Shown here: in pieces, positions 1 to 15,535 of the stretch
How the letters are laid out: each line of letters begins with the position of its first letter
Position numbering within the stretch: position 1 is the first letter of the stretch
Virus record (IMG/VR): IMGVR_UViG_2634166457_000017
Coordinates: 1-15,535 of that record
DNA length: 15,535 nt
Strand: one strand, 5' to 3'
From: a virus
Taxonomy: Duplodnaviria; Heunggongvirae; Uroviricota; Caudoviricetes
Notes under the pieces: model-generated
Databases searched by the model: none
What the model saw: the letters and a program-made list of their open reading frames with translations, nothing else
Told to the model about the DNA's origin: nothing
Program-made: the position numbers and the translations under genes

Positions 1-1227
1 GTGGCAGGCACAAACAAACTGAGTGATAAAAAATTAAGATCGCTTCTCGGCGTAAAGCGGGATTCAGTAATTACCATTGCGGATGGTGAAGGATTAAGCA
101 TCAAAGTATCCATGATGGGATGCATTAGTTGGGTTTTCTCTTATCGTCTTGGTGGGCGTGGGAGCAAGTTAGAGCGCATTGTTCTTGGGCGTTACCCTGA
201 CATGTCGTTGAAAATGGCTAGGGAGAAGAGGGAACTATGCCGAAAATGGTATGCGGACGGGCTGAATCCACGACTTGAATTAGAACTTAGCGCAGAAGAA
301 AACCTTAACCCCGTAACTGTCCATGATGCCCTTGAATATTGGCTAATTCATTACGCAAGAAAAAAACGTAGTGACGAGGAACTCGTGCGGGCGCAATTAC
401 GTAAGCATATTTATCCGCGTCTTGGCCACTATCCGTTATCCCGGTGTGAAACGCGTCACTGGGTGACATGTTTTGATGAAATTAACCAGTCCAGGCCAAT
501 CACTGCCGGGCGAATGTTCCAGATTTGTAAACAGGCCTTAAGATTCTGCAAGGTTCGCCGTTATGCCTCATGTGATGCCCTGGCTTTTATGACAATCCAG
601 GATGTAGGGCAACCATCGGGGCAGCGTGATAGGGTGCTGTCAGATAGTGAGTTAGCTGATGTATGGCGGTGTACTTATAGCGATGAACAGCAATTTTATT
701 ATCTTCGTCTGCTTAAGTTGCTTGTGCTGTTTGGGGCGCGAACAATGGAAGTAAGATTATCCCGGTGGAGTGAATGGGATTTTCAGTCATGGATTTGGAC
801 GGTTCCTAAAGAACACAGCAAAACTCGTGAAAAAATAGTTCGTCCAATTCCAGAGGGCATTCGCCCATGGATTGAGGATCTAAAAAAGGAAACGGGAAAA
901 ACAGGAATTGTACTGGGTGAAGAACGTTCCCGCCAGGCTGCTTCGCTTAAAGGGCGTAGGCTATACAAAGATTTTCATCATAATGAGCCATGGACGCTTC
1001 ACGATTTGCGCAGAACATTTTCTACAGGTTTAAATAATATGGGTATTGCGCCACATATTGTAGAGCTTTTACTTGGTCATGCATTGCCGGGGGTGATGGC
1101 TATTTATAACCGTAGTCTGTACTTACCTGAGAAAATGGATGCGTTGAATAAGTGGTATGGCCGATTAGAACTTCTGGCTGGTAATCATCAAAATGTGGTG
1201 CTGTTACCTGTATCGAATAGAGGTTAA
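1..1227 (+). CDS. int: Tyrosine recombinase / phage integrase (P4-like, arm-binding N-terminus)
   Basis: 408-aa ORF; C-terminal catalytic region shows the R..HxxR..Y pattern (WTLHDLRRTFST, LLGHA, AIYNRSLY). N-terminus resembles P4-family integrase arm domain. GTG start sits at the window edge, so the true start could lie upstream. Confidence 0.85.
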   Translation: MAGTNKLSDKKLRSLLGVKRDSVITIADGEGLSIKVSMMGCISWVFSYRLGGRGSKLERIVLGRYPDMSLKMAREKRELCRKWYADGLNPRLELELSAEENLNPVTVHDALEYWLIHYARKKRSDEELVRAQLRKHIYPRLGHYPLSRCETRHWVTCFDEINQSRPITAGRMFQICKQALRFCKVRRYASCDALAFMTIQDVGQPSGQRDRVLSDSELADVWRCTYSDEQQFYYLRLLKLLVLFGARTMEVRLSRWSEWDFQSWIWTVPKEHSKTREKIVRPIPEGIRPWIEDLKKETGKTGIVLGEERSRQAASLKGRRLYKDFHHNEPWTLHDLRRTFSTGLNNMGIAPHIVELLLGHALPGVMAIYNRSLYLPEKMDALNKWYGRLELLAGNHQNVVLLPVSNRG

Positions 1228-1318
1228 ACTGATATTACGGGCATAGGTCGGCCAACCGAAAAGCGGGAAACCCTACCCGCCTGGCTCGTAAAGTATTTAG
1301 GGCGTTGAGGGTAGCGCA

Positions 1319-2248
1319 ATGGCTAACGACATTAAAATTCCTTTTCAGTATTGCAACATTGAGCGTGCATCAAGATTGCTGGGTTGCGAGATTAGCGATC
1401 TCGTGAATTTAGGTGTTACTAAAAAAATAGCTTTATGCCTAAATTTATTTGATGCTCGCGCTGTTTTATATATGAATACTGATAGCAAGTCTGCAACTGC
1501 TTGGTTTGATACCAGAAATGCAAAATCGACCACATCACTGATGGGGAACAATATTACTGAATACTCCAGGTTTCATCTTTTCAGATACAATTATAACGAG
1601 GAGACAGATGAAACTATACACGCGCCTTTATTCGGTCAAGACTCAGAAAACGGATGCTTTAGCTCTATTGGTAGGGCTTATGGATTGTGGCGCCTTTGGA
1701 GTGGGCTGGAAGAACTACAAAATTTTGGAGAGTATTCCCTAAGTGGTTTTGAATTAACCCCGTGTCATCCAGAAACTGATAATCCTGCCGTACAACTTTT
1801 AATGGTTGGTGAAGATAGTGATTATGATGAAGAAGACGATCAAATATTAAAGAATAATATTTCTATAAATGACTTGTGGATTACCGCTCATGATATAAGG
1901 CGACTTCTTGACTGTGGTGGCGATTATTTTACGCTAACAGATAATTTTGAATCTGTAGAACCTCACAAGATGAATGGCAATGAAATTGTGCAACATTCTG
2001 CTGAAAGACATGCAAGAAATCGAGAGCAAATTTTAATGGTTGCTATGCGTTTTAAAGAAGAGCAACAAAATACTTTTAATGAGACCTGCAGAAAAAACGA
2101 TGGAACGATTAACTATTCTGCTTGGGCTCGTGAGTTGATCGCCAGACCTGATTGGTTCATTAATAGTGAATTGCCAATAAAAACAGAAACAAAAATAGCA
2201 GCAATTTTAAGTAATGCTCATAAGAGGCCGAGTGAAAGGTCGCAGTAA
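1319..2248 (+). CDS. Hypothetical protein, AT-rich accessory gene of unknown function
   Basis: 309-aa ORF with GAGGGT Shine-Dalgarno 6 nt upstream of ATG; visibly more AT-rich than flanking genes; no recognisable catalytic motif (no P-loop, no HNH, no DEAD); possible helix-turn-helix-like N-terminus (ERASRLLGCEISDLVNLGVTKK), acidic cluster DSDYDEEDD. Confidence 0.6.
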   Translation: MANDIKIPFQYCNIERASRLLGCEISDLVNLGVTKKIALCLNLFDARAVLYMNTDSKSATAWFDTRNAKSTTSLMGNNITEYSRFHLFRYNYNEETDETIHAPLFGQDSENGCFSSIGRAYGLWRLWSGLEELQNFGEYSLSGFELTPCHPETDNPAVQLLMVGEDSDYDEEDDQILKNNISINDLWITAHDIRRLLDCGGDYFTLTDNFESVEPHKMNGNEIVQHSAERHARNREQILMVAMRFKEEQQNTFNETCRKNDGTINYSAWARELIARPDWFINSELPIKTETKIAAILSNAHKRPSERSQ

Positions 2249-2267
2249 GCCTTACTCATATACTCCT

Positions 2268-2306
2268 AAGCATACTGATATATTTATAAGCATTATCAGT
2301 ATGTTT
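2268..2306 (+). terminator. Possible intrinsic terminator after accessory ORF
   Basis: Perfect 10-bp inverted repeat CATACTGATA (2271-2280) / TATCAGTATG (2294-2303) followed by TTT; loop is long (13 nt), so weak call. Confidence 0.3.
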
Positions 2307-2385
2307 CTATGATTACTACTGTGTTTTAATCCAGTATTAAAGATTGCAAAATAGCCTCCGCAATCATAGATACAGTGGAGGCAAT

Positions 2386-2670
2386 ATGACAAAAACCACA
2401 TTCATTCCCCCAACTCCAGAACAACGCCGGGCGCTTCTTGAAGAATACGGTTTTGAATTTGATCGCCGTATCCGTGAAAAGGAATGCCAGGAAATCACCA
2501 GTCTGTCGCGCTCAACTCGCTTCAAAATGGAAAATGAAGGGCGTTTCCCGCCTCGTTGTCATTTCGGGCGCAATAGCTGTGCGTGGCTTCTCTCTGATGT
2601 GCTTTGGTGGGTTCGTAACCCACCTGCTGTAGATAAAGTCAATAATCCGTACGGTAAGAAAGCTGCATAA
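2386..2670 (+). CDS. alpA: AlpA-family transcriptional regulator / excisionase-like DNA-binding protein
   Basis: Translation contains ITSLSRSTRFKMENEGRFP...WLLSDVLWWV, matching the AlpA winged-helix signature. Start placed at ATG 2386 (GGAGG 4 nt upstream) rather than the ORF-track start at 2344. Confidence 0.75.
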   Translation: MTKTTFIPPTPEQRRALLEEYGFEFDRRIREKECQEITSLSRSTRFKMENEGRFPPRCHFGRNSCAWLLSDVLWWVRNPPAVDKVNNPYGKKAA

Positions 2671-2850
2671 GGGGGGAGTTATGACACATAAAACAAAGGC
2701 GACCGGGGGCGGTCGCCAATGGGAAAACACTAAACATAAGCCCGAACATCATAGCGGTTTGCTGACTGGTGGGCAATCTGTCAGGTTTGCACCAATGACT
2801 CCAGGTTTAACCGAGGGTCATTATGGTGAATATGCTGACTTGCTGGTGGG

Positions 2851-3048
2851 CTATTCCTGCTCTTTAACATCGCCATTCTGCGATGTTTTCCAGGTATGCG
2901 ATCCCATTTTTGTGCGCCTGTACTCTTTAAGGAACTTCTCAAGGACAAACGCACATGGCGCAAATCTTTCCTGTTCTTGTTCGCTTACCGCATTTTTGCG
3001 TTGTTTTTTCCTGGATGAAGATAATTTCTTTAATGATTTGTCAGTCAT
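2851..3048 (-). CDS. Small basic hypothetical protein (uncertain)
   Basis: 65-aa minus-strand ORF in the same frame as the downstream RHH gene; weak SD; lysine/arginine-rich N-terminus. Could be a shadow ORF. Confidence 0.25.
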   Translation of the reverse strand: MTDKSLKKLSSSRKKQRKNAVSEQEQERFAPCAFVLEKFLKEYRRTKMGSHTWKTSQNGDVKEQE

Positions 3049-3300
3049 CGTAGATACCTGTAACCCTGTGCGCCACAGTTCACCGCACCACGGCGCTGGT
3101 GATGGTTACTCCTGCTCTTTGGCCTTGCGGCGCTTTAGTTCTGCTGGAGCTAATCAATCATTGTATATTAGACGTGGGATCTTTTTTTCATCGCTCCTGC
3201 ATATACGCTCATTACTGACGTGTTCATTGCTGATGCAATTTCCTAGGAGGAAAACATATAAAAACAGGGAGCCAAACCAGTATATTTTTTGCTGCATGAG

Positions 3301-3486
3301 TTATTCCTTATCAGCCTCTTTGTTTTTTTTACGCTGGCGGCGTTTGATTTCGCCGCGCATGGCAGTAACGATAAATTGCGCGTCTGTTTCGTTTTCTTCT
3401 TTTACCAAATTCATTTCGCTTAAAACTTCTAGAGGTACTCTAGCTGTTTTTTGTTGTGACTTGTTGTTGGTTGTACCTGTTGGCAT
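3301..3486 (-). CDS. Ribbon-helix-helix (Arc/MetJ-like) transcriptional repressor
   Basis: 61-aa ORF with strong SD (TAAGGAG, 7-nt spacer); segment RVPLEVLSEMNLVKEENETDAQFIVTAMRGEIKRR follows the beta-strand/helix/helix pattern of Arc repressor (EVL..EEN..); divergent from the early operon and adjacent to a palindromic operator. Confidence 0.6.
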   Translation of the reverse strand: MPTGTTNNKSQQKTARVPLEVLSEMNLVKEENETDAQFIVTAMRGEIKRRQRKKNKEADKE

Positions 3487-3551
3487 CTCTGTTCTCCTTA
3501 CTGTTAGGTGGTGTTCAGTATACGGAGAAAAAAAATAAAAAAAGACTTGAA

Positions 3552-3596
3552 GTGCAAGTCACCTAAAAGTAACCTAGATTTCAAGGTGACTTGCAC
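3552..3596. promoter_or_regulatory. Palindromic operator in divergent promoter region
   Basis: Perfect 13-bp inverted repeat GTGCAAGTCACCT (3552-3564) / AGGTGACTTGCAC (3584-3596) with 19-bp spacer, between the minus-strand RHH gene and the + strand early operon; candidate -35 TTGAAG at 3548-3553 overlaps the left half-site. Confidence 0.55.
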
Positions 3597-3674
3597 CAAA
3601 AAGCAACGCCCCGCACTGTTGGAGCAGTAACGGGGCATCTAACCACCAACGATAACGATAGTATCGAGGTAGCT

Positions 3675-3878
3675 ATGTTAAATCATACCACACACCCGCA
3701 AGGGCGGGATTCGCACAACCTGAATAAATATATCTGGCGTTTTATCGCTCTGAGCACGGCACAACCGCGCGTGATTACCATTGAGGCCACCAGCGAACAG
3801 GAAGCACGTCAGCAATCTCCTGATGGCTGCGTGATGGTATTCGCTGCCCGTATCCGTCAGGGGGGGAGCCATGCATGA
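3675..3878 (+). CDS. Small protein, possibly Icd-like host cell division inhibitor (P4 kil-region type)
   Basis: 67-aa ORF from ATG 3675 with GAGGT SD; pattern YIWRFIAL...EATSEQEARQ...FAARIRQG resembles small Icd-like proteins of P4-type elements as I recall them; position upstream of primase matches the P4 early operon layout. The ORF-track start at 3591 is TTG inside the operator and is unlikely. Confidence 0.4.
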   Translation: MLNHTTHPQGRDSHNLNKYIWRFIALSTAQPRVITIEATSEQEARQQSPDGCVMVFAARIRQGGSHA

Positions 3879-4098
3879 TGACCGTTATTTTAAATCAATG
3901 AGCCATGCAGAAAATGCACTGACTAACAGTGAATGCTTGCGGCAAATATTGCTTATCTGGCTTGATGGTTTAAGTGATGCGCCGGAAGATGAGCGTGAAT
4001 CTAATCTTGCTGGTGCGTTTATTTCATTACTCGATACGGTAATCGTCGAATTAAATAAAGCGATCGAAATTCACGATAAAAAAATAAACGCGGAATAA
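3871..4098 (+). CDS. Hypothetical small protein
   Basis: 75-aa ORF, GGGGGGAG SD immediately upstream, overlaps previous stop by 8 nt (translational coupling). Confidence 0.45.
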   Translation: MHDDRYFKSMSHAENALTNSECLRQILLIWLDGLSDAPEDERESNLAGAFISLLDTVIVELNKAIEIHDKKINAE

Positions 4099-4103
4099 AA
4101 ACC

Positions 4104-4391
4104 ATGAAACAGAAAATTTCTGGCTTTACTGCCAGCGGCCCCGCTCGTCCTGAATTTATGAACGGCGATATTTACCGCGATAAATATGGCGGTACGGTAA
4201 CGATTAAAGGCGTGGCAGAACGGCGCATCACCTACCGCCGTGAAGGTTATGAATATGACTGCGTGATGCCTGTTTATCAATTCCGGCGTGATTTTAAGCT
4301 GGTGGGCCATCGTAAAGCCGTAAATAAGAAACGTGCAGCAAGCTATATCCGCAAAATCCGTGAAATGCTGGTCGCAGGGGGTAAGAAATGA
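4104..4391 (+). CDS. Hypothetical small basic protein
   Basis: 95-aa ORF; stop overlaps primase start (ATGA), suggesting coupled translation. Confidence 0.5.
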   Translation: MKQKISGFTASGPARPEFMNGDIYRDKYGGTVTIKGVAERRITYRREGYEYDCVMPVYQFRRDFKLVGHRKAVNKKRAASYIRKIREMLVAGGKK

Positions 4392-6136
4392 AACTGGCAC
4401 CGAACGTAAAAAAACAACCACGCGGAATAAAACACAAAGACACAGAGGTAATTATTTTCGCGGGTAGTGATGCGTGGGCACATGCAAAACAGTGGCAGGA
4501 GCAGGACGGCCCCGCATCCGGCGATGATGTGCCGCCTGTGTGGCTTGGGCCAAATCAGCTTGCCGAACTGGATGCGCTGAAAATTGTTCCGGATGGGAAA
4601 AAACGCGTAAGGCTGTACCAGGCCGGAGAACTGGATTTAGTGGAGACCAAAAAGATTGGTCAGAAGCTGGCGGCGGCAGATATTCAGGATGCGAATTTTT
4701 ACCCCGAAGGGATGCACGGACAGAAATGTGAGAACTGGCGGCGCTATCTGAATGCTGAGCGTGAAAATATTGCCGCAGGGATTACCATGCCGGAACAGAA
4801 AAAATCACAACTTTCACAGATGGCAGACAGTGAACGGGCACAGCTTCTTGCTTCCCGCTTTGATGGTGTCTGCGTCCATGCAGAAAGTGAAATCGTTCAC
4901 GTATGGCGTGACGGGGTATGGTGTCCGGTCAGCACAATGGAGCTGAGCCGCGAAATGGTGGCGGTTTATTCAGAACACGGGGCCACGTTCAGCAAGCGTG
5001 CAATTAATAACGCCGTTGAAGCATTAAAAGTTATTGCCCAGCCAATGGGGGAGCCGTCCGGCGATTTGCTGCCGTTCGCCAATGGTGCGCTTGACCTGAG
5101 AACAGGAGAATTTTCCCCGCACCAGCCGGATAACTGGCTCACCACCCACAACGGCATTGAGTACACGCCGCCAGTACCAGGGGAGAATATCCGCGACAAC
5201 GCGCCAAACTTTTATAAATGGCTTGATCACGCTGCCGGAAAAGACCCACACAAGATGATGCGCATATGTGCCGCGCTCTACATGATTATGGCGAACCGGT
5301 ACGACTGGCAGATGTTCATTGAGGCCACCGGAGACGGCGGGAGCGGTAAGAGTACATTCACGCACATTGCCACACTACTTGCCGGAAAACCGAACACGGT
5401 GAGCGCCGAGATGACATCGCTTGATGATGCTGGTGGGCGTGCGCAGGTTGTCGGGAGCCGCCTTATCGTTCTGGCAGACCAGCCGAAATACACGGGCGAG
5501 GGCACGGGCATCAAGAAAATCACGGGCGGCGACCCCGTGGAGATTAACCCGAAATATGAAAAGCGATTCACGGCGGTAATCAGGGCGGTTGTGCTGGCAA
5601 CCAATAATAACCCGATGATATTCACCGAACGGGCCGGAGGCGTGTCACGTCGTCGGGTGATATTCCGGTTCGATAACATCGTAAGCGAGGCAGAAAAAGA
5701 CAGGGAGCTACCGGAAAAGATAGCGGCAGAAATCCCTGTCATTATCCGCCGCTTGCTGGCGAACTTTGCCGACCCTGAAAAGGCACGGGCTTTACTCATT
5801 GAACAGCGAGACGGTGATGAAGCACTGGCGATAAAGCAGCAGACGGATCCGGTTATTGAGTTTTGCCAGTTCCTTAACTTTCTGGAAGAAGCACGCGGCC
5901 TGATGATGGGCGGCGGCGGTGACTCTTCCAGGTACACGACCAGAAACAGCCTTTACCGCGTCTATCTGGCGTTTATGGCGTATGCCGGCAGGAACAAGCC
6001 GCTGAACGTGGCTGAGTTCAGCAAAGCTATGAAGCCAGCGGCGAAAGTTTACGGACATGAATATATAACGCGCAGGATTAAAGGGATTACGCAAACCAAC
6101 GTGACAACAACAGACGACTGCGACGCGTTTTTATAA
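4388..6136 (+). CDS. Phage/plasmid primase-helicase, P4 family (D5_N-like plus SF3 NTPase)
   Basis: 582-aa ORF; Walker A GDGGSGKST; GGGGG SD upstream; immediately followed by iteron array. No obvious TOPRIM EGYATA motif seen, so it may be helicase/initiator only. Confidence 0.85.
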   Translation: MKLAPNVKKQPRGIKHKDTEVIIFAGSDAWAHAKQWQEQDGPASGDDVPPVWLGPNQLAELDALKIVPDGKKRVRLYQAGELDLVETKKIGQKLAAADIQDANFYPEGMHGQKCENWRRYLNAERENIAAGITMPEQKKSQLSQMADSERAQLLASRFDGVCVHAESEIVHVWRDGVWCPVSTMELSREMVAVYSEHGATFSKRAINNAVEALKVIAQPMGEPSGDLLPFANGALDLRTGEFSPHQPDNWLTTHNGIEYTPPVPGENIRDNAPNFYKWLDHAAGKDPHKMMRICAALYMIMANRYDWQMFIEATGDGGSGKSTFTHIATLLAGKPNTVSAEMTSLDDAGGRAQVVGSRLIVLADQPKYTGEGTGIKKITGGDPVEINPKYEKRFTAVIRAVVLATNNNPMIFTERAGGVSRRRVIFRFDNIVSEAEKDRELPEKIAAEIPVIIRRLLANFADPEKARALLIEQRDGDEALAIKQQTDPVIEFCQFLNFLEEARGLMMGGGGDSSRYTTRNSLYRVYLAFMAYAGRNKPLNVAEFSKAMKPAAKVYGHEYITRRIKGITQTNVTTTDDCDAFL

Positions 6137-6144
6137 TTTTAGAC

Positions 6145-6380
6145 AAAAGCCCTCTACCCCTTCTACCTTAAGAAAATAATTGCATATATTTCATATGGAT
6201 AGGTTTGGTAGATGGCAGGTAGAAGGCACTTAAAAGCCCTCTACACCCTCTACCATAATTCAGGGCATTTGTGAGGGGGTGGTAGATGGCAGGTAGAGGG
6301 CCAAAAAAGCCATCTACCCCGCTGAAAGCCGCGCCATTACTGACCTGAAAGATGATTAGGTAGAGAGGTAGAGGAGGTGC
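6145..6380. repeat. Iteron array / putative origin of replication
   Basis: Eleven copies of hexamer TCTACC/GGTAGA in about 230 bp, organised as alternating-orientation 20-23 bp units (e.g. GGTAGATGGCAGGTAGAAGG at 6207-6226 and GGTAGATGGCAGGTAGAGGG at 6281-6300; AAAAGCCCTCTACCCCTTCTACC at 6145-6167 and AAAAGCCCTCTACACCCTCTACC at 6232-6254), with an AT-rich stretch 6170-6198; directly downstream of the initiator gene. Confidence 0.65.
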
Positions 6381-6422
6381 ACCACAACCCAAAACTTTTT
6401 AAACACGAGGGTAAAAATAAAA

Positions 6423-6680
6423 ATGCACACTACAGAAAAACTTAACAATCAGAAGAAACCACATAACCGCGCCATTGAGTTTACAGAGCACTTGCTGAGG
6501 GTGGCGATAAAAATCATCGACCGCAACGCGGGAGAAGGATACGCGAAAGCCCATCCCGAACTGGTAAGCGCATTCATGACAACGGCAGCGGCAAACTTTG
6601 CCACGCTGACAGAACGGGAGATTGCCGAAGCGGAACAGGTGACAACCATCAACGTTAAAACCGGAGAGCAGACAGCATGA
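6423..6680 (+). CDS. Hypothetical protein
   Basis: 85-aa ORF; stop overlaps the SSB start (ATGA). Confidence 0.5.
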   Translation: MHTTEKLNNQKKPHNRAIEFTEHLLRVAIKIIDRNAGEGYAKAHPELVSAFMTTAAANFATLTEREIAEAEQVTTINVKTGEQTA

Positions 6681-7102
6681 CGGCACAGATAGCGGCACAC
6701 GGGCGGCTGGTGGACGACCCACAGGTAAAACAGACCAGCAAGGGCACACCCATGACGCTGGCACGGATGGCGGTATCCGTACCGTGCCATAACGCAGACG
6801 ACGGACAGGCGACGCTATGGCTTGCCGTAACTGCCTTTGGTAAGCAGGCCGACGCGCTGGCAAAGCACCACAAAGGCGAACTGGTGAGCGTGGCGGGTAA
6901 CATGCAGGTAAGCCAGTGGACAGGCCAGAACGGCGAAACGCGGCAGGGCTGGCAGGTTATCGCAGACAGTATAATCAGTGCGCGAACCGTGCGACCAGGT
7001 GGCAGGAAAGGCCAACAAGGGCAGGCTACTGACGCACTGAACAGGGCAAAACAACAGACAGGCCAGCACGATGACCCATACGGGGATGAAATACCGTTTT
7101 AG
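6677..7102 (+). CDS. ssb: Single-stranded DNA-binding protein (SSB-like, short)
   Basis: 141-aa ORF; OB-fold-like core aligns by eye with E. coli SSB (LWLAVTAFGKQADALAKHHKGELVSVAGNMQVSQWTGQNGETRQGW); C-terminus DDPYGDEIPF resembles the SSB acidic tip DDDIPF. Confidence 0.7.
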   Translation: MTAQIAAHGRLVDDPQVKQTSKGTPMTLARMAVSVPCHNADDGQATLWLAVTAFGKQADALAKHHKGELVSVAGNMQVSQWTGQNGETRQGWQVIADSIISARTVRPGGRKGQQGQATDALNRAKQQTGQHDDPYGDEIPF

Positions 7103-7120
7103 CGATAACAGGGGAGATAC

Positions 7121-7369
7121 ATGCCAGTGACATTTGAAGAAGTTCAGCAACATAAAAAGTTTCATGGTTTTGATGATCTGGAAACCACGACAGCAAAAAA
7201 ATATCGCCGTCTGCTTTCTTCCGATGCGTTATTTGTTGTGGATCATCATGATTTTCTGCGCAGCTCACTGACCGGGGAAATTTTCGCAACCAACCGTGAG
7301 CAGGTGGAAGCGATGATCGAATATCTGTGGAAAATAAGACGCAGAATGCGGGATCCCGTGAAACAATAA
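7121..7369 (+). CDS. Hypothetical protein
   Basis: 82-aa ORF with GGGGAG SD; followed by an intrinsic terminator. Confidence 0.55.
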   Translation: MPVTFEEVQQHKKFHGFDDLETTTAKKYRRLLSSDALFVVDHHDFLRSSLTGEIFATNREQVEAMIEYLWKIRRRMRDPVKQ

Positions 7370-7378
7370 AGCGATAAA

Positions 7379-7407
7379 GGCCTGGATTTTTTCCAGGTCT
7401 TTTTTTC
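7379..7407 (+). terminator. Rho-independent terminator ending the replication module
   Basis: Stem CCTGGA (7381-7386) / TCCAGG (7392-7397) with 5-nt loop, followed by TCTTTTTTT. Confidence 0.6.
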
Positions 7408-7423
7408 AGGTTTTGTAAATTAT

Positions 7424-7453
7424 TTGTTCGTGGTTGTTCCAGGTTGTTCGGTG
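7424..7453. repeat. Three tandem 10-bp direct repeats upstream of the capsid operon (candidate activator binding sites)
   Basis: TTGTTCGTGG / TTGTTCCAGG / TTGTTCGGTG at 7424-7433, 7434-7443, 7444-7453, just upstream of a TTTACA (7467-7472) -35-like hexamer. Confidence 0.5.
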
Positions 7454-7643
7454 ATTCTGGCTGATGTTTACATACTGATTTTTATGTATATCTTGAAGAG
7501 TGGCACTCAGACGTGAGCCGCCACAATGCCGCCTGACCCCCTGCGCGATGCCGGGTTGATCTGCGAGATGTCGAGAGTGTCGGGCGGCGCTCCCTCCGTG
7601 TTGGTTTCACGTCCTGAATCTTAACCAATACGAGAAAACCTTC

Positions 7644-8789
7644 ATGAAGAAATTAATCGAACTCCGCCAGCAAAAAACCGCCCTGAAAAACCAGATGCGC
7701 TCCCTGCTGGAAAAAGCAGACAGTGAAAACCGCAGCCTGAACGATGACGAGGGCAAACAGTTTGATGAACTGCGTGCAAAAGCTGATTCCCTCGACACAG
7801 AAATCTCCCGTCTTGAAGCTGTTGCGGATGAAGAACGTAACCAGCCAGGTGTTTCCGTCGAAGAGAAAATCACCAAAGACGAATTGCGCTCTTATATTCT
7901 GACCGGGGAAACCCGCAACCTGTCCGGCAGTGTCCCGGCTGATGGTGGTTATACGGTTATCCCGGAACTGAACAGAGAAATTATGCGTCAGCTTTCTGAT
8001 GAATCGGTGATGCGTAAAATCTGTACCGTTAAAACCATTCACAGCAATGAATTTAAGCAACTGGTTTCTACCGGGGGGGCGGTCGTTGAACACGGCGAAG
8101 AAGGTGCGGCACGTAACCAGACGGCAACACCAAAACTGAATGAAGTCAGTATCCGCCTGTATCCGATTTACGCTTACCCGAAAACCACTCAGGAAATTAT
8201 CGATTTTTCCGAAGTCGATATTATGAGCTGGTTATCTTCTGAAATTGGCGACACTTTCGTTGATACCGAAGAAACGGATCTGGTTTCCGGTGACGGCGAG
8301 AAAAAAGCTAAAGGCTTCCTGGCTTTCCCGCGCACTGCGGACAATGACAAAACCCGTCCTTTCGGTACGCTCCAGACGAAAAAAGTTACTGGCAGTCTCA
8401 GCGCCGACATGCTGATTGACCTGAAATTTACGCTACGCAATAAGTACCGCAAAAAAGCTGTATGGGTGATGAACTCAAATACAGCCGCCTCCGCACAAAA
8501 ACTGAAAAATGCCACTGGTGATTACATCTGGCGCGATCGTTTACAGGCTGGTGATCCTGATTCTCTGCTGGGGCTTCCGGTTGAATATCTGGAATTTATG
8601 CCGGACGGTGTGATTGCAGTAGGTGACTTTAAGCGCGGTTATTTCATCGTTGACCATGAAACCGGTACGCGAACCCGTCCGGACTTCAGCGAACCCGGAT
8701 TCATTAACATCTATACCCAGAAATATCTGGGCGGTGGTGTGGTGGATTCGAACGCCATCAAGATTCTGGAAATTCAGGCTGGCAAGTAA
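7644..8789 (+). CDS. Major capsid protein, HK97 family (with N-terminal delta/scaffold-like coiled coil)
   Basis: 381-aa ORF; N-terminal charged coiled-coil segment typical of the HK97 gp5 delta domain; gene context capsid-protease-portal. Confidence 0.85.
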   Translation: MKKLIELRQQKTALKNQMRSLLEKADSENRSLNDDEGKQFDELRAKADSLDTEISRLEAVADEERNQPGVSVEEKITKDELRSYILTGETRNLSGSVPADGGYTVIPELNREIMRQLSDESVMRKICTVKTIHSNEFKQLVSTGGAVVEHGEEGAARNQTATPKLNEVSIRLYPIYAYPKTTQEIIDFSEVDIMSWLSSEIGDTFVDTEETDLVSGDGEKKAKGFLAFPRTADNDKTRPFGTLQTKKVTGSLSADMLIDLKFTLRNKYRKKAVWVMNSNTAASAQKLKNATGDYIWRDRLQAGDPDSLLGLPVEYLEFMPDGVIAVGDFKRGYFIVDHETGTRTRPDFSEPGFINIYTQKYLGGGVVDSNAIKILEIQAGK

Positions 8790-8795
8790 TGAGCA

Positions 8796-8820
8796 AAGGG
8801 GGCTTCGGCCTCCTTTTTCA
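8796..8820 (+). terminator. Intrinsic terminator/attenuator after major capsid gene
   Basis: AAGGGGGC (8796-8803), TTCG loop, GCCTCCTT (8808-8815) forming an 8-bp stem with one G-U pair, then T-run. Confidence 0.5.
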
Positions 8821-8838
8821 GCTTTATGGAGTACACCG

Positions 8839-9399
8839 ATGAAAAATACCGATTTTGAAATCCGTACATCTGAACTGACCGCCAGCGATAAAAAACTGGT
8901 GGGTTATGCCGTTCGCTGGAACAGTCTTTCAGAAATTATCTGGGATGAGTTCCGCGAACAATTCACGCCGGGGGCTTTTGCTGACTATCTGGCTGCGGGT
9001 AATGATGTGCGCTGCCTGTATGAGCATGACTGTACCCGACTGCTGGGGCGTACCAAATCCGGCACACTGGTACTGACTGAGGATAACACCGGGTTACGTT
9101 TTGAACTGACACCGCCGGATACCCAGCTTGGGAAAGATGTGCTTACGCTGGTGGAGCGAGGCGACATTACAGGAATGAGCTTTGGCTTTCGCGCATTATG
9201 TGAGGAGTGGAATATCGCGCAAAAACCGTATCTGCGTACTGTTACCGCCGCAGAACTCAGGGAAATCACGATAACGTCGATGCCTGCTTACCCCGAATCT
9301 GGTGTGGAGATTGCCCACCGTTCGTTGTTTGCACAGCACCCTGAATTACGCCCGACAGGAAATAATCGTCATCGCTGGGCTGAACTGGCGGGGTTGTGA
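8839..9399 (+). CDS. Prohead maturation protease, HK97 family (S78-like)
   Basis: 186-aa product from ATG 8839 (GGAG SD); N-terminal LVGYAVRWNSLSE...FTPGAF typical of HK97 prohead protease. The ORF-track extension to 8623 overlaps the capsid gene and is not used. Confidence 0.8.
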   Translation: MKNTDFEIRTSELTASDKKLVGYAVRWNSLSEIIWDEFREQFTPGAFADYLAAGNDVRCLYEHDCTRLLGRTKSGTLVLTEDNTGLRFELTPPDTQLGKDVLTLVERGDITGMSFGFRALCEEWNIAQKPYLRTVTAAELREITITSMPAYPESGVEIAHRSLFAQHPELRPTGNNRHRWAELAGL

Positions 9400-9400
9400 T

Positions 9401-10615
9401 ATGTGGTGGCCTTTTAGTCGTAAAAAAAGCGATCTGCGTAACCTGTCCATTGATGATTTTCTGGCGCTGTCCGGCGTACCGAATACCGGATCCGGAGAAT
9501 ATGTTTCTGCCGGGACGGCTGAATCATTGCCTGCAGTGATGAACGCGGTTTCTGTCATCGCTGAGGCGGTGGCCACGATGCCGTGTTATCTGTATCTGGT
9601 ACGTAATGACAAGGGCAGGGAGGCGCGGGAATGGCTGGACAGTCATCCGGTAGATATTCTGCTGAATGAGCAGCCTAATTCGTGCCAGACACCTTACCAG
9701 TTTAAACGCACAATGATGCGTCACTGCCTGCTGAACGGTAACGCCTATGCGGTTATTGAGTGGGGGCGGGACGGGCAGCCCAAATCACTTCATCCTTATG
9801 CACCGGGTTGTGTTGTACCGGAACGCACAGGCGCACACAAATACCGCTATACCATCACCGAACCCTATACAGGAACGGTGCGCACGTATTTACAGGAAGA
9901 AGTTTTGCATCTCCGCTATGCCTCGGATGATGGCTTTCTGGGGCGCTCCCCTGTCACGATTTGCCGTGAGGCGCTGGGGCTTGGCCTTGCTCAACAGCGC
10001 CACGGAGCCAGCATTATGAAAGATGGCATGATGGCGGCAGGGATTATCACGTCAGGCGAATGGCTGGACGGCGTGAAAGGTAAACAGGCATTAGATGCTC
10101 TGGAACGCTATAAGGGGGCGAAAAATGCCGGAAAAACGCCAATCCTTGAAGGGGGCATGGATTACAAGCAACTGGGGATGAGTAACCAGGATGCGGAATG
10201 GTTGGCCTCCCGTCGCTTCTCCATTGAAGACATTGCCCGTATGTTCAACGTGTCGCCGATTTTTCTTCAGGAATACAGCAACAGCACCTACAGCAATTTC
10301 AGTGAGGCAAGCCGCGCGTTTCTGACTATGACAATGCGTCCGTGGCTGGCGAACTTCGAACAGCAAATCAAGGCCGCTTTGCTGGTGGCTTCTCCCGTAC
10401 CTGGTACCCGTTATCTGGTTGAGTTTGATTCAGCCGATTTACTGCGCGCCACCCCTACCGAACGTTACGCCACGTATGAGAAAGGGATTAAGAACGGGAT
10501 CATGAATCCGAACGAAGCCCGTGAGCGTGAGGGAATGCCGCCGCGTGAAGGTGGCGACGAGTTCAGCCAGGCATGGAAGCAGACTGTGGAAATTAAAGGT
10601 GAAAAAGATGAGTGA
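9401..10615 (+). CDS. Portal protein, HK97 family
   Basis: 404-aa product from ATG 9401, 1 nt after protease stop; size and context fit an HK97-type portal. Confidence 0.8.
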   Translation: MWWPFSRKKSDLRNLSIDDFLALSGVPNTGSGEYVSAGTAESLPAVMNAVSVIAEAVATMPCYLYLVRNDKGREAREWLDSHPVDILLNEQPNSCQTPYQFKRTMMRHCLLNGNAYAVIEWGRDGQPKSLHPYAPGCVVPERTGAHKYRYTITEPYTGTVRTYLQEEVLHLRYASDDGFLGRSPVTICREALGLGLAQQRHGASIMKDGMMAAGIITSGEWLDGVKGKQALDALERYKGAKNAGKTPILEGGMDYKQLGMSNQDAEWLASRRFSIEDIARMFNVSPIFLQEYSNSTYSNFSEASRAFLTMTMRPWLANFEQQIKAALLVASPVPGTRYLVEFDSADLLRATPTERYATYEKGIKNGIMNPNEAREREGMPPREGGDEFSQAWKQTVEIKGEKDE

Positions 10616-10907
10616 AGACAAAATTACACCTGATGAAGTCAGGGCACATCTTCGCCTTGATGACTTTTCCGGAGAAGGCGAACTTCTGAAAATGTATACC
10701 GATGCGGCGCTGGAAGCCTGCCAGAAGCATATCGGGAAACGTTTTGAAGACGGGCTGGAATTTACCCCGGCAATACGTGTTGGTTGCCTGATGTACATCG
10801 CTTTCCTGTATGAGAACAGGGAAGCGGTTTCACCTGTGGAGCAGTCTGAACTGCCTATGGCTATTTCTGCGCTCTGGTCGGTTTATCGTGATGTGGGGGT
10901 GTACTGA
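10608..10907 (+). CDS. Head-tail connector protein (gp6-like)
   Basis: 99-aa product; N-terminal ITPDEVRAHLRLDDFSGEGELLKMYTDAA matches the conserved start of gp6-like head-tail connector proteins; AAAGGTGA SD; overlaps portal stop. Confidence 0.7.
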   Translation: MSEDKITPDEVRAHLRLDDFSGEGELLKMYTDAALEACQKHIGKRFEDGLEFTPAIRVGCLMYIAFLYENREAVSPVEQSELPMAISALWSVYRDVGVY

Positions 10908-11346
10908 TGCCGTGGCAACCATTAAGGCGATGCACTGAGCCGGGCTGTAATAAGCGCGTGAAGTCCGGCAAGTGTGAAGAGCACAGGCGGGCTGCATGGC
11001 GTGCAGAGGATGCCAGACGGGGACACCGCCGCGCGCGCGGGTATTCCCGACAGTGGGACAAATACCGCGCCCTGTACCTGAGCAAAAACCCGTTATGCGT
11101 GCGTTGTCTGGCTAAGGGGATTTATACGCCAGCTCTTGTGGTGGATCACATCATTCCCATCAATGGCGCGGTGATGTTCTCTTCTGGCCTGAGTGGAATC
11201 ACCAGGCATTGTGCCAGACGTGCCACAACCGTAAGACGACACGGGAAGATCCAGCCACGAAAGCGAACCGTAAGGCGGGCATGTATCGCGAGCAGGAAGA
11301 ACGGGCGGCACATCGTAACGACTGGATGTATGGCGATGATGACTGA
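10907..11346 (+). CDS. HNH endonuclease, disrupted by an apparent -1 frameshift near 11165-11172 (possible pseudogene or sequencing error)
   Basis: Frame of ORF 10907..11515 encodes CVRCLAKGIYTPALVVDHIIPING, then loses the motif; the frame shifted by one base encodes GDVLFWPEWNHQALCQTCHNRKTTRED and stops at 11344-11346. The D-H and N/H halves of the HNH motif are therefore in different frames. Confidence 0.7.
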
Positions 11347-11634
11347 ACAGGAGCAAAACAGGCTGATACGTGGACTGATAAGGCAGCGTGACTTATGGAA
11401 GACACAGGAGACAGGGCACAAAGCCAACAGGACAGGACGCACAGAACGCACCACAGCGAAGCGATTAACCGACCGTGACCGCGAGGTCATGGAATGTTTT
11501 CGCAATCGCTGGTGAAGCCGTCAGAGGGGGTGGGGGAGGTTTTCAGGACGAAACCGTCCCTGCCGGACACCGACCGCCTCCTCAAATTTTTGTGCACGGG
11601 AATTTTTTTGAAAATAATTGGGCGAAAAAAGAAC
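11347..11634. other. Candidate cos / terminase recognition region between HNH and terS
   Basis: Location between HNH and small terminase as in HK97-type phages; purine-rich direct repeats ACAGGAGACAGGGCACA (11404-11420) and ACAGGACAGGACGCACA (11427-11443); G-rich tract GAGGGGGTGGGGGAGG (11524-11539); small hairpin GGACG-AAAC-CGTCC (11546-11559). Confidence 0.3.
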
Positions 11635-11991
11635 ATGGCAAGACCACCAAAAGCCCCCGCTTACCTGGATGAAATCGCGGTCAGGCAGTGGAAGGAAAAA
11701 TCGCGCCAGCTTTCCGGGCGGGAAGACCTTACCCCCGCCGACTGGAGCAATCTGGAACTGTATTGCGTTAACTACTCCATATACCGCAAAGCCGTCGAAG
11801 ACCTTGCGACGCGCGGCTTCAGCATTGTTAACAGTCAGGGCAGCGAGAGCAGAAACCCCGCCCTGAGCGCAAAGGCTGACGCGGAAAGAATAATGATCAA
11901 AATGGCTTCTTTGCTGGGTTTTGACCCGGTAAGCCGCCGCAGAAATCCACCGGAAACAGAGGAAGAGGACGAGCTTGACCGCCTGGCATGA
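11635..11991 (+). CDS. terS: Terminase small subunit, P27 family
   Basis: Translation MARPPKAPAYLDE...LYCVNYSIYRKA...SRNPALSAKAD...LLGFDPVSRRR matches the P27-family TerS pattern. An alternative upstream start at ATG 11494 (with GAGG SD) cannot be excluded. Confidence 0.7.
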   Translation: MARPPKAPAYLDEIAVRQWKEKSRQLSGREDLTPADWSNLELYCVNYSIYRKAVEDLATRGFSIVNSQGSESRNPALSAKADAERIMIKMASLLGFDPVSRRRNPPETEEEDELDRLA

Positions 11992-13636
11992 GTACGCAGA
12001 AGGCGTAAAAAACGGCAAAATTACGGCCTGTAAACGACTGAAACAGGCCGTTAAACGGTATTTTTATGACCTTGAAAACCCCCTTTACACGTTCGATCCT
12101 GAGGTCGTGGAGCGGTTTATTGCCTTTTCCAGGGTGTGCCCGCACGTAAAAGGCGCAATGCGCGGTAGCCCCATTGAGCTGGAGCCGTGGCAGCAGTTCG
12201 CCTTTGCGTGCATCCTGGGCTTTAAGGTTAAGGCCACCGGACGGCGCAAATACACCAGCGCATTCATTGAAGTACCGCGAAAAAATGCCAAATCCACGGT
12301 CGCCGCTATCCTGGCTAACTGGTTTCTGGTTATGGAAAACGGGCAGCAGGATATTTACACCGCCGCCGTGAGTCGTGATCAGGCGCGGATCGTGTTTGAT
12401 GATGCGCGTCAGATGTGCCTTTTATCCCGACCGTTACGAAAGCGGGTAAATATTCAGGCACACAAGGTGATACACACGAAAACCAACAGCCTGTTAAAGC
12501 CACTGGCAGCAAAAGCGGCAACCATTGAAGGTACAAACCCGAGTCTTGCCATTGTGGATGAATATCACCTGCACCCTGACAACGGGGTTTATTCCGCGCT
12601 TGAACTGGGAATGGGGGCGCGTCCGGAGGGGTTATTATTTGCCATCACCACATCGGGGAGCAACGTTGTTTCAGCCTGTAAACAACACTACGACTATTGC
12701 TGCCAGATACTGGATGGTGAAGAGGTGAACGAATCCATGTTCGTGCTGATTTACGAGCTGGATGATGAAAGCGAGGTTGACGATCCGGCGATGTGGATAA
12801 AGGCGAATCCCAATATCGATGTTTCCGTCGATCGTGAAAAACTGGCCTCAACCATCCAGAAAGCGCGGGGTATTCCGTCGCAGTGGGTGGAAATGCTCAC
12901 CAAGCGATTCAATATCTGGTGTCAGGGGGCTACGCCGTGGATGGGTAACGGTGCATGGGCGGAGTGCGCCGGAATGTTCGCGGAGGCGGATTTATACGGG
13001 CAGGAGTGCTACGCGGGGCTGGACTTATCATCAACCAGCGATATTTCCAGCGTGTGCTATGCCTTTCCGGTCGGTAAAAAGATTATGCTGGTTTCCCGTC
13101 ACTATCTGCCGGAATTTCAGCTACAGAACCCTGCCAATAAAAACCGCGCCATCTATCGCCAGTGGGCAAAGGCGGGCTGGATACGCACAACACCGGGTGA
13201 CTGCATTGATTATGACCGTATCCGTGATGACATCATGGCGGATGCAGAGAATTTCAATATCAGGCTGGTGGGTTTCGATACATGGAACGCCACGCACCTG
13301 AGGACGCAGCTACAGGGCGCGGGATTTGAGGTGGAGCCGTTCCCGCAAACATACCTTCGTTTCAGTCCGGCGGCGAAATCGTTCGAAGTTTTTGTTAACC
13401 GGAAGGTGATTGTGCATCGTGGTGATCCGGTGCTGGCCTGGTCAATGAGTAATGTTGTGATGCAGAGTGACGCGAACGCCAATATCAAGCCGAACAAGAA
13501 AAAATCATCCAACAAGATAGACCCGAGCGTTGCGGCGCTGATGGCGTTTGGCACATTCCAGGCAGAGCATGAGGAATTTGCATTCGATATGAGCGACAGC
13601 CACAAAGAGCGGCTTGCGGCGTTTGATGGGGTATAA
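11975..13636 (+). CDS. terL: Terminase large subunit
   Basis: 553-aa ORF; Walker A-like VPRKNAKST and Walker B-like LAIVDEYH; TTG start with AGAGGA SD, overlapping the terS end. Confidence 0.9.
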   Translation: MTAWHEYAEGVKNGKITACKRLKQAVKRYFYDLENPLYTFDPEVVERFIAFSRVCPHVKGAMRGSPIELEPWQQFAFACILGFKVKATGRRKYTSAFIEVPRKNAKSTVAAILANWFLVMENGQQDIYTAAVSRDQARIVFDDARQMCLLSRPLRKRVNIQAHKVIHTKTNSLLKPLAAKAATIEGTNPSLAIVDEYHLHPDNGVYSALELGMGARPEGLLFAITTSGSNVVSACKQHYDYCCQILDGEEVNESMFVLIYELDDESEVDDPAMWIKANPNIDVSVDREKLASTIQKARGIPSQWVEMLTKRFNIWCQGATPWMGNGAWAECAGMFAEADLYGQECYAGLDLSSTSDISSVCYAFPVGKKIMLVSRHYLPEFQLQNPANKNRAIYRQWAKAGWIRTTPGDCIDYDRIRDDIMADAENFNIRLVGFDTWNATHLRTQLQGAGFEVEPFPQTYLRFSPAAKSFEVFVNRKVIVHRGDPVLAWSMSNVVMQSDANANIKPNKKKSSNKIDPSVAALMAFGTFQAEHEEFAFDMSDSHKERLAAFDGV

Positions 13637-13641
13637 CGAGA

Positions 13642-13926
13642 ATGAGCGAAACCGAACTACTAAAAATAATCCGCCGCATTACCGGAATCAGCCAGGAAGC
13701 AGGCAAACAGGAGGCCACGCAGCCGGACAGCGTGATAGCCGAAAATTACGCGCGTGTGGTGGCTGAGGTGATGCGCCGTGATGGTATTGAGCTTAACGGC
13801 GTGGATATGCGAGACATACGGATCCGAGTTCTTGAAATGCTGGCCTACAATCGCCGCGTGGAGATGTACCGGGAGAAAGAAAAAATTACTTACCACTGGA
13901 AGAAGCCGGAGCGGTTACGGCGGTAA
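13642..13926 (+). CDS. Hypothetical protein (possible head completion/adaptor function)
   Basis: 94-aa ORF immediately after terL; no recognisable motif. Confidence 0.45.
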   Translation: MSETELLKIIRRITGISQEAGKQEATQPDSVIAENYARVVAEVMRRDGIELNGVDMRDIRIRVLEMLAYNRRVEMYREKEKITYHWKKPERLRR

Positions 13927-13931
13927 CTTTG

Positions 13932-14204
13932 ATGACTGATAACGTAGATTTGCGTCATCATAAAAATCAATTGGTTACGATTACAGGCGGCGTTGTAGCC
14001 TGTTACGATTATCGTAATCCCTTTCTGTATGACAGGGTGGCAGGTATGGTGATTTCCGCCCCTCCTTTGCAAATTGACAACGTAGTGTGTGATGTCGAAT
14101 TAACTCCGTACGTTAAACGTACGGAGTTCCCGGCAGGCTTAGGTTCCGACGAAATTCGTCGACACCTCCCGGCAGGAACAGCGAGAATTACGTCGCTGAT
14201 GTAG
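13932..14204 (+). CDS. Hypothetical protein
   Basis: 90-aa product from ATG 13932 (ORF-track start 13929 is TTG); last ORF of the island; weak RBS. Confidence 0.4.
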   Translation: MTDNVDLRHHKNQLVTITGGVVACYDYRNPFLYDRVAGMVISAPPLQIDNVVCDVELTPYVKRTEFPAGLGSDEIRRHLPAGTARITSLM

Positions 14205-14998
14205 CCTACGAAATTTTCGCAGGTTAATTATCTATCTGCTTAATCGCTAACCCACTGATTTTTATGATGACTCAAATTTGAAGCATCTTTGTTTACGTTG
14301 ATATTGTGTCAAAGCCCTTTTTCGGGCTTTGGCCTAACCCGCTGATATTTTCGGAAACAGCCATCGACTGAGGCCGGAGTAACCGACTATCTTTGAGATA
14401 GTCAGATGTACGAAATTTGTGCGGGACTAAAAGTCCCGCGCAAATTCACTACATCACCGTAATGGTTATGCAGTCCACCAGCAACCATAACGATTTCCGT
14501 TACTGTTGATGTGCTTTTTTGCTGGTAAGGCGTAATCCGTTGATTGTTCCACAAACCTCAATTTGAGGAAGCCGGAAAACTCACCCGCCAGATTCTGAAT
14601 GGTGAAAATCACCGGGGATCTGAATAGGCATTTCCTCTATGGAGGTCGCACCGTTTTCGGGAGAAGGTGCGATCATGTTCGTCATACCGGTTCCGTTGAA
14701 ATGAAATAGCCCTGTATGGGCATCATCACCATGCAGGGGATCAAAATCTCTGTAGCTTCATGTTGCCGGGACCGCCAGCCTCGCCAAATTTTTGCGTTTG
14801 TGAAAAACGAAAATTATTACGTGCTTTGCCCTCTCCTGTTTCTGATGTTGTATACTCGCGGCCTTCTAATTGTGCTGGTGCTTTTTTGAGATTGTGGCGC
14901 TGTGTATCGATCCGTATATCATTCGGTGTATCACTTTTGATAAATTGCTACGTGTGAATTTGTTTTTAACTGACAAAAATCAGTGGGTTATGTGAATT

Positions 14999-15535
14999 AT
15001 GAAACATATTGTAGAAGTAATGATCCCCGAAGCGGAGATTAAAGCGCGTATCGCCGAACTGGGTCGTCAGATTACTGAGCGTTACAAAGACAGCGGCAGC
15101 GATATGGTGCTGGTGGGTCTGCTGCGTGGCTCATTTATGTTTATGGCGGACCTGTGTCGTGAAGTTCAGGTATCTCATGAAGTCGATTTTATGACCGCCT
15201 CCAGCTACGGTAGCGGCATGTCCACCACCCGTGATGTGAAAATCCTCAAAGATCTGGATGAAGATATCCGTGGCAAGGACGTGCTGATTGTTGAAGATAT
15301 CATCGACTCGGGGAATACACTGTCGAAAGTGCGTGAGATCTTAAGCCTGCGCGAACCGAAGTCGTTGGCGATTTGTACGCTGCTGGATAAACCGTCCCGT
15401 CGTGAAGTGAACGTCCCGGTAGAATTCATCGGTTTCTCGATCCCGGATGAGTTTGTGGTGGGTTACGGCATTGATTACGCACAGCGTTACCGTCATCTGC
15501 CGTATATCGGCAAAGTGATTCTGCTGGACGAGTAA
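14999..15535 (+). CDS. hpt: Hypoxanthine phosphoribosyltransferase
   Basis: 178-aa translation [30 protein letters not shown]...[17 protein letters not shown]...[10 protein letters not shown] is recognisably enterobacterial Hpt, including the PRPP-binding [13 protein letters not shown] motif; complete CDS ending at the window edge. Confidence 0.95.

Follow-up and report, generated by a model that had tools for sequence, protein, structure and literature searches.

The 15,535-nt stretch of viral DNA analysed here (IMG/VR record IMGVR_UViG_2634166457_000017, positions 1 to 15,535; Caudoviricetes), hereafter called the window, contains a 286-bp intergenic gap at 6137-6422, which separates the ORF at 4388-6136 from the ORF at 6423-6680 and in which one short hexamer recurs in both orientations. 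A sequence-only reading of this DNA had taken the gap for a putative island origin next to an initiator gene. The question raised by the locus is what this array does for the element that carries it. The analysis indicates that 6137-6422 is very probably the vegetative replication origin of a capsid-forming PICI (cf-PICI) lying between gcd and hpt, acting by the mechanism proposed below.

By its gene content, the window is a cf-PICI whose integration site in E. coli lies between gcd and hpt. Genes were assigned using Pfam, NCBIfam and PHROG. The AlpA-like regulator is followed by an Icd-like gene, a DUF4222 gene, the gene of a 582-aa D5_N/DUF5906/Pox_D5 protein, an 85-aa ORF and the SSB gene, and then by genes for an HK97-type major capsid protein, prohead protease, portal, connector, HNH, TerS and TerL, with the host hpt at the end; no tail or lysis genes were found in the window by these assignments. 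The features of a PICI backbone, including an integrase, an AlpA-type activator, pri-rep and unidirectional rightward genes, are all present, and close relatives are placed between gcd and hpt of E. coli. The gene set is the same as that described for cf-PICIs in 10.1101/2022.09.08.507074, a preprint in which neither ori nor iterons are mentioned, and no paper was found whose text ties 'TCTACC' to iterons in PICIs.

Homologues of the intergenic region were present in 565 of 5,426 complete E. coli genomes and were chromosomal in every case. The exact mosaic of the window was present in none of the 5,426 genomes (best coverage 83%). The best counterpart of its replication module (97%) is in strain Ch1, within a classical PICI beside tRNA-Ile/mug, and the backbone of the window matches gcd/hpt islands bearing other replicons. 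Some E. coli genomes have up to four places homologous to this origin, which indicates that satellites with related origins can coexist and raises the question of incompatibility between them.

The hexamer TCTACC/GGTAGA occurs 13 times in the 15,535-bp window, compared with 3.5 expected, and ten of the 13 copies fall within 6153-6372; the remaining three are isolated, leaving a single iteron cluster in the window. The background rate gives a lambda of 0.056 per 286 bp, from which the Poisson probability of at least ten copies in 6137-6422 is 8e-20. In 5000 dinucleotide-preserving shuffles of the region, TCTACC reached at most two copies and any 6-mer at most eight. Eleven hexamers had been counted earlier; ten are exact, and the eleventh is the one-mismatch copy TCTACA at 6240-6245. 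The alternating orientation that had been described is borne out, the groups (with hexamer starts) being ++ (6153, 6162), -- (6207, 6218), ++ (6240, 6249), -- (6281, 6292), + (6313) and -- (6359, 6367), with start-to-start spacings inside the doublets of 9, 11, 9, 11 and 8 bp. Likewise, the 22-nt repeat TGGTAGATGGCAGGTAGA(A/G)GGC present in the array corresponds to the 20-23 bp units reported before. A higher order, absent from that description, was also found: the array consists of three tandem units, each opening with AAAAGCC(C/A)TCTAC (starts 6145, 6232 and 6305; lengths 87, 73 and 74 bp) and each built of forward copies (paired in units 1 and 2, single in unit 3) followed by a spacer and then a doublet in reverse orientation. 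The coordinates of these and the other features are listed in Table 1.

The AT-rich patch of the earlier description is the first spacer, 6168-6206, which is 39 bp long with 21% GC, is flanked by the ++ doublet 6153/6162 and the -- doublet 6207/6218, and includes the 36-bp segment that ranks third in the window for low stability (99.86th percentile of instability). The first spacer was 35-40 bp long with 11-23% GC in all six arrays measured, i.e., the window and five homologues, with iterons of the types TCTACC, TGTTCAC(C) and TGTTCAT. This spacer is a candidate DNA-unwinding element. No DnaA box within one mismatch was found in 6137-6422 and no GATC in the array, which fits a self-loading initiator like the SaPI Reps. 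The single-strand fold of the region has a z score of -3.9 because of the inverted iteron doublets, and an Rfam search of 5800-6900 at E <= 1 returned no match. A minus-strand ORF at 6168-6392 (74 aa) was rejected as coding on account of single-base indels among the aligned homologues. The only other hexamer pile-up in the window is an A-rich stretch at 3261-3560, with ten AAAAAA in 286 bp, comprising the 3' end of the ORF at 2681-3538 and the short gap after it.

Table 1. Features of the island, its replication module and the intergenic array (window coordinates; a dot in the strand column is given for features without strand).
Feature	Position	Strand	Evidence or content
Integrase	1-1227		
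AlpA/excisionase-like protein (regulator)	2344-2670		
Predicted initiator 'pri-rep', 582 aa	4388..6136	+	Pfam D5_N, DUF5906, Pox_D5; TIGR01613
Predicted winged-helix origin-binding domain, Pri residues 486-577	5843..6118	+	phmmer, PDB 1KA8 (P4 alpha), E = 1.4e-6
Whole intergenic region	6137..6422	.	Very probable origin; counterpart of the fragment that the pri-delta-ori plasmid of EcCICFT073 lacks; alignment, primer mapping
Tandem unit 1	6145..6231	.	AAAAGCC, ++ 6153-6167, AT-rich spacer, -- 6207-6223
Tandem unit 2	6232..6304	.	++ 6240-6254 (first copy TCTACA), 26-bp spacer, -- 6281-6297
Tandem unit 3	6305..6378	.	Single + 6313-6318, 40-bp spacer, -- 6359-6372
AT-rich spacer	6168..6206	.	21% GC; same place in five homologues whatever the iteron sequence
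Conserved GC-rich non-iteron block CTGAAAGCCGCGCCATTACTG in unit 3 spacer	6322..6343	.	Invariant runs 6323-6327, 6329-6333, 6335-6342
Conserved AAAACTTTTTAAAC + GAGGG ribosome-binding site, leader of downstream ORF	6391..6422	+	Invariant run 6391-6404; ATG 6423
85-aa ORF	6423..6680	+	phrog_1231 (unknown function), E = 1.3e-45
SSB, last gene of replication module	6677..7102	+	Pfam SSB, E = 2.8e-17

The gene directly upstream had been read as a primase/helicase gene with the array immediately 3' of it. Its position was as described, the first iteron lying 17 bp past the stop codon of ORF 4388-6136, and a helicase-initiator was recovered; a recognisable primase domain was not. The product, Pri, is composed of a ~120-aa N-terminal domain, D5_N, an SF3 helicase (DUF5906) and a C-terminal winged helix. 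By homology, Pri is a P4-alpha-like helicase-initiator: it is 87% identical to the EcCICFT073 Pri-Rep, its residues 139-578 show 40.8% identity to P4 alpha, and its helicase part matches PDB 7OLA, which was deposited as 'DNA primase'. The homology of its C-terminus to the origin-binding domain of P4 alpha supports an island origin at this place. No recognisable primase catalytic domain was found in Pri, and residues 1 to ~120 gave no Pfam match and no alignment with the P4 alpha primase. The 'DNA primase family protein' labels in these islands derive from the helicase part of the protein. The N-terminal domain (1 to ~120) was also found at the head of an unrelated RepA-type helicase in another gcd/hpt island (L011; 41% identity, E = 6e-23).

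An experimentally tested homologue of this module exists in EcCICFT073. Window 4093-6984 shows 82.6% DNA identity to EcCICFT073, whereas elsewhere the two islands resemble each other just in short patches, a few hundred bases long and 75-84% identical. The gene order is the same in both (DUF4222, pri, intergenic region, 85-aa ORF, ssb), and the intergenic region is ~287-288 bp in EcCICFT073 and 286 bp in the window. Eleven TCTACC/GGTAGA copies are present in EcCICFT073, and their offsets from the stop codon agree with those of the window at 9 of 11 sites; the AT-rich first spacer is common to both. The two arrays differ in mid-array turnover, where -- then ++ in the window stands against - then +++ in EcCICFT073, and in the 5' flank of the iteron, which is GCC(C/A)TCTACC in the window and CT(G/A)TCTACC in EcCICFT073. 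The islands that carry them are also different, a cf-PICI at gcd/hpt in the one case and a classical PICI next to phoQ in the other.

According to the plasmid experiments of Fillol-Salom 2018 (ISME J, PMC6092414), a thermosensitive plasmid with the EcCICFT073 pri-ori gave colonies at 44 C and the corresponding rep mutant plasmid gave none, while deletion of the origin from a clone that also bore pri reduced the colony numbers significantly and did not abolish them. The primers of PMC6092414 were mapped on CFT073. The delta-ori clone stops 4 nt past the pri stop, and the full clone ends ~24 nt into the next ORF (this primer is inexact on locus L008, and the end was placed by eye). From these ends, the 'ori' deleted in pJP2028 is the homologue of window 6141 to ~6446, i.e., of this intergenic region. 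The sequence-only reading had proposed cloning 6137-6422 and assaying its replication with the initiator supplied; in effect this experiment has already been done, on an 82.6% identical module, and the homology to that tested pri-ori module supports the putative origin next to the initiator gene. Judged by this homology, the array belongs to a class of PICI origin that is already known and is orthologous to the origin of EcCICFT073.

The hexamers are selectively conserved. Nine E. coli copies were aligned (mean column identity 70%); all nine sequences agreed in 51 of the 66 columns that fall in hexamers, compared with 42 of the 176 remaining columns of the array (Fisher P = 6e-14). The exceptions are the hexamers at 6207 and 6218; the CFT073 group has an extra forward copy in place of one reverse copy, which indicates that the overall layout persists through iteron turnover. 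Conservation was also found outside the iterons. The CTGAAAGCCGCGCCATTACTG block in unit 3 is nearly invariant in TCTACC-type origins and absent from TGTTCACC-type origins, whose matching spacer is AT-rich; no promoter, Rfam or DnaA-box match was found for 6322-6343, and the origin model leaves this block unexplained. In all annotated TCTACC-type loci (L001-L006, L008-L010), the next gene after the array is the 85-aa ORF, and with the exception of the O157 island L001 the 85-aa ORF is in turn followed by an SSB gene.

The iterons vary together with the initiator. In E. coli ATCC 43886 (L012), the island of the window occurs at the same site, with 99% identity over the left 2.8 kb, packaging genes 96.5% identical to those of the window and a backbone that is 95-99% identical overall. 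Divergence spans window 4741-6452, starting at Pri residue ~119, taking in the entire array and ending ~30 nt inside the next ORF, and the L012 Pri is 49% identical overall to that of the window. The L012 array is made of TGTTCACC/GGTGAACA, the annotated type-1 iteron of P4, at offsets (+17 +27 | -69 -83 | ...) that parallel those of the window (+17 +26 | -72 -83 | ...). Compared with PDB 1KA8, the P4 alpha origin-binding domain, the C-terminal domain scored 88.6 bits for L012 and 30.5 bits for the window. A different initiator allele thus goes with different iterons in the same architecture, so that iteron and initiator travel and co-vary together. In E. coli Br_190_kylling (L011), which has the backbone of the window at 97-99% identity, the stretch 4304-6653 of the window is replaced by a cassette with a RepA/AAA_25 helicase and a 201-bp array of nine exact GTGGGGA/TCCCCAC heptamers, in which no TCTACC was found. 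On one side the recombination break-points fall within the initiator gene or beside it, on the other shortly beyond the array, and they enclose helicase, winged helix and array as a single cassette.

The same pattern extends to other hosts. The iteron is TGTTCAC in Serratia aquatilis and TGTTCAT in Morganella, a Shigella relative with a 93% identical Pri has TCTACC, and Serratia phage Scapp (L019) has AAAAGTG-type repeats such as GAAAAGTGCAA. A window-type C-terminal domain was accompanied by TCTACC in 11 of 11 such loci, and the iteron type tracked the type of C-terminal domain across 17 loci. This set was built from E. coli and phage records, and a scan of genome contigs with Pri returned three loci. 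Co-variation with the initiator allele and the selective conservation of the hexamers both support the island origin. Indirectly, the pattern suggests that the iteron sequence is specified by the C-terminal DNA-binding domain of the initiator; from homology and co-variation, Pri is expected to bind TCTACC, and its winged helix would be the part that reads the iterons. In Scapp (2932-3330) and in Pasteurella Pmp7 (L018, 3256-3430), a distant alpha-like 'primase' is followed by a terminator-like hairpin and then by repeats, those after the hairpin in Pmp7 being a few GTGAA/TTCAC copies.

Comparison with satellite P4 bears both on the function of the array and on the strongest competing explanation. 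P4 alpha and the window Pri both combine an SF3 helicase with a C-terminal winged-helix origin-binding domain, and both elements have short iterons in both orientations. Like the array of the window, the P4 crr directly follows the initiator gene on its 3' side and is made up of tandem direct-repeat units: there are two of them, each 120 bp long and holding type-1 repeats in both orientations. Several differences were found. The P4 iteron is TGTTCACC (also in L012 and L014) and that of the window TCTACC; P4 splits its cis elements into ori (9086-9809) and crr (4291-4590), 4.5 kb apart, whereas the window has one cluster; a terminator is present between alpha and crr, whereas a promoter/terminator scan of 5900-6700 found none between pri and the array. 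P4 alpha has 777 aa and Pri 582 aa, and since alpha aligns just to Pri 139-578, its N-terminal region is without a counterpart in the window protein; no N-terminal DnaG-type primase domain of the P4 kind was recognised in the window initiator. The array thus appears to work like the P4 ori/crr while differing from it in three features, namely the iteron sequence, the split of ori and crr, and the primase domain. A perfect DnaA box TGTGGATAA was also seen at the far end of the P4 crr (L013, 4280-4300, alpha orientation), and PICI arrays are without it.

In P4 the element 3' of alpha is crr, an enhancer needed in cis, and initiation takes place at the separate ori, so the position of the array is by itself no proof that synthesis starts there. 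The array could be a crr-like enhancer, which binds the initiator and is needed in cis while DNA synthesis begins elsewhere, an explanation that draws on the P4 crr being annotated apart from ori immediately 3' of alpha and on the array sharing its position and tandem-unit build. We consider this improbable. A single iteron cluster was found per island in the window, EcCICFT073, L012 and L011, and no second one; an EcCICFT073 fragment with only pri and the intergenic region supported plasmid maintenance in the experiments of PMC6092414; and the array itself contains a conserved AT-rich spacer suited to melting.

Other known origins place the array more closely. As summarised in PMC9371898 (citing Ubeda 2007, 2012), SaPI origins lie immediately downstream of rep with 6-12 penta- or hexanucleotide iterons, an AT-rich region near the centre and at least two opposing iterons on each side, and the SaPI Rep is a self-loading helicase whose C-terminal winged helix reads the iterons. 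The window is like the SaPIs in that the array lies 3' of the initiator gene, opposite iterons flank an AT-rich region and the helicase part of Pri resembles PDB 7OLA; it differs from them in that SaPIs have Gram-positive hosts, unrelated iteron sequences and one AT-rich centre, compared with the three tandem units of the window. Iteron plasmids such as pSC101, R6K, RK2 and F have 17-22-bp direct repeats in one orientation and DnaA boxes, and they use a Rep_3/RepA-type initiator, with host DnaB loaded via DnaC. Repeated initiator sites (putative in the window) beside an AT-rich unwinding element are common to both, whereas the window has 6-bp cores in both orientations, no DnaA box and a D5/SF3 initiator that is itself a helicase; on these three grounds an iteron-plasmid oriV was ruled out. 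The paired inverted layout had also been judged more elaborate than simple direct iterons, but it is standard for PICI origins and for the P4 ori/crr. The further suggestion that the initiator might bind on both faces of the DNA does not agree with the doublet spacing of 8-11 bp, which puts the two sites on the same helical face.

A second explanation, less probable still, is that the hexamers are operators through which Pri or another island protein controls the 85-aa ORF, ssb and the packaging genes. The array does lie directly upstream of ORF 6423 with no terminator in between, and the leader 6391-6422 is conserved; yet a promoter scan of 5900-6700 gave one weak sigma-70 match, no more than shuffles give, and when the array is exchanged it goes with the initiator, the packaging genes remaining 96-98% identical in L011 and L012 although the iterons are different. 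The homologous EcCICFT073 fragment was moreover needed for replication, as reported in PMC6092414. That the array is a packaging site (cos or pac) for the TerS/TerL/HNH of the island is hardly credible, for although the island does its own packaging and a cos site was not located, the array also occurs in classical PICIs whose packaging modules are different (EcCICFT073, Nissle and the O157 cspD/clpS island) and is absent from L011 and L012 despite 96-98% identical packaging-module DNA (window 7112-13933, including the terminase genes).

Taking 6137-6422 as the replication origin, we propose the following mechanism. Upon induction by a helper phage, the island would express the 4388-6136 product, a self-loading SF3 helicase-initiator, whose C-terminal winged-helix domains would recognise the TCTACC hexamers. 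Head-to-tail doublets about one helical turn apart would hold two domains on one face of the DNA, and doublets of opposite orientation would face each other across the spacers in the three tandem units. Many initiator subunits would in this way be gathered around the 39-bp, 21%-GC spacer 6168-6206, where the DNA would then melt, and helicase hexamers might load in both directions, independently of DnaA, giving bidirectional replication.

On its own, the finding carries little weight. It places an origin annotation on the cf-PICI, a type of element whose own papers leave the origin undiscussed, and the three initiator-iteron pairs on one backbone are ready material for studies of origin specificity, satellite incompatibility and anti-satellite targeting. 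A wider reading, which we offer tentatively and regard as rather doubtful, joins two proposals. The first is that the cassettes are replicon specificity types, the backbone circulating with at least three interchangeable ones: TCTACC with an SF3 Pri, TGTTCACC with a P4-like SF3 Pri, and GTGGGGA with a RepA helicase. The second is that Pri-Rep is without a working primase and that its N-terminal domain is an adaptor. The ~120-aa domain is possibly TOPRIM-like and degenerate, and, being common to Pri and the RepA-type initiator, it could serve the two initiators as a shared adaptor to a host or phage factor. If the wider reading is true, cassette types could be selected by incompatibility between co-resident satellites or, alternatively, by helper or rival elements that target origins, in the way that the ICP1 nuclease targets PLE origins. 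The replicon cassettes on the common gcd/hpt backbone, which is 96-99% identical beyond the cassette, were located at 4304-6653 in the window, 4304-6720 in L011 and 5952-7718 in L012, and in the RepA-type cassette of L011 an unrelated 257-aa ORF stands in place of the 85-aa ORF.
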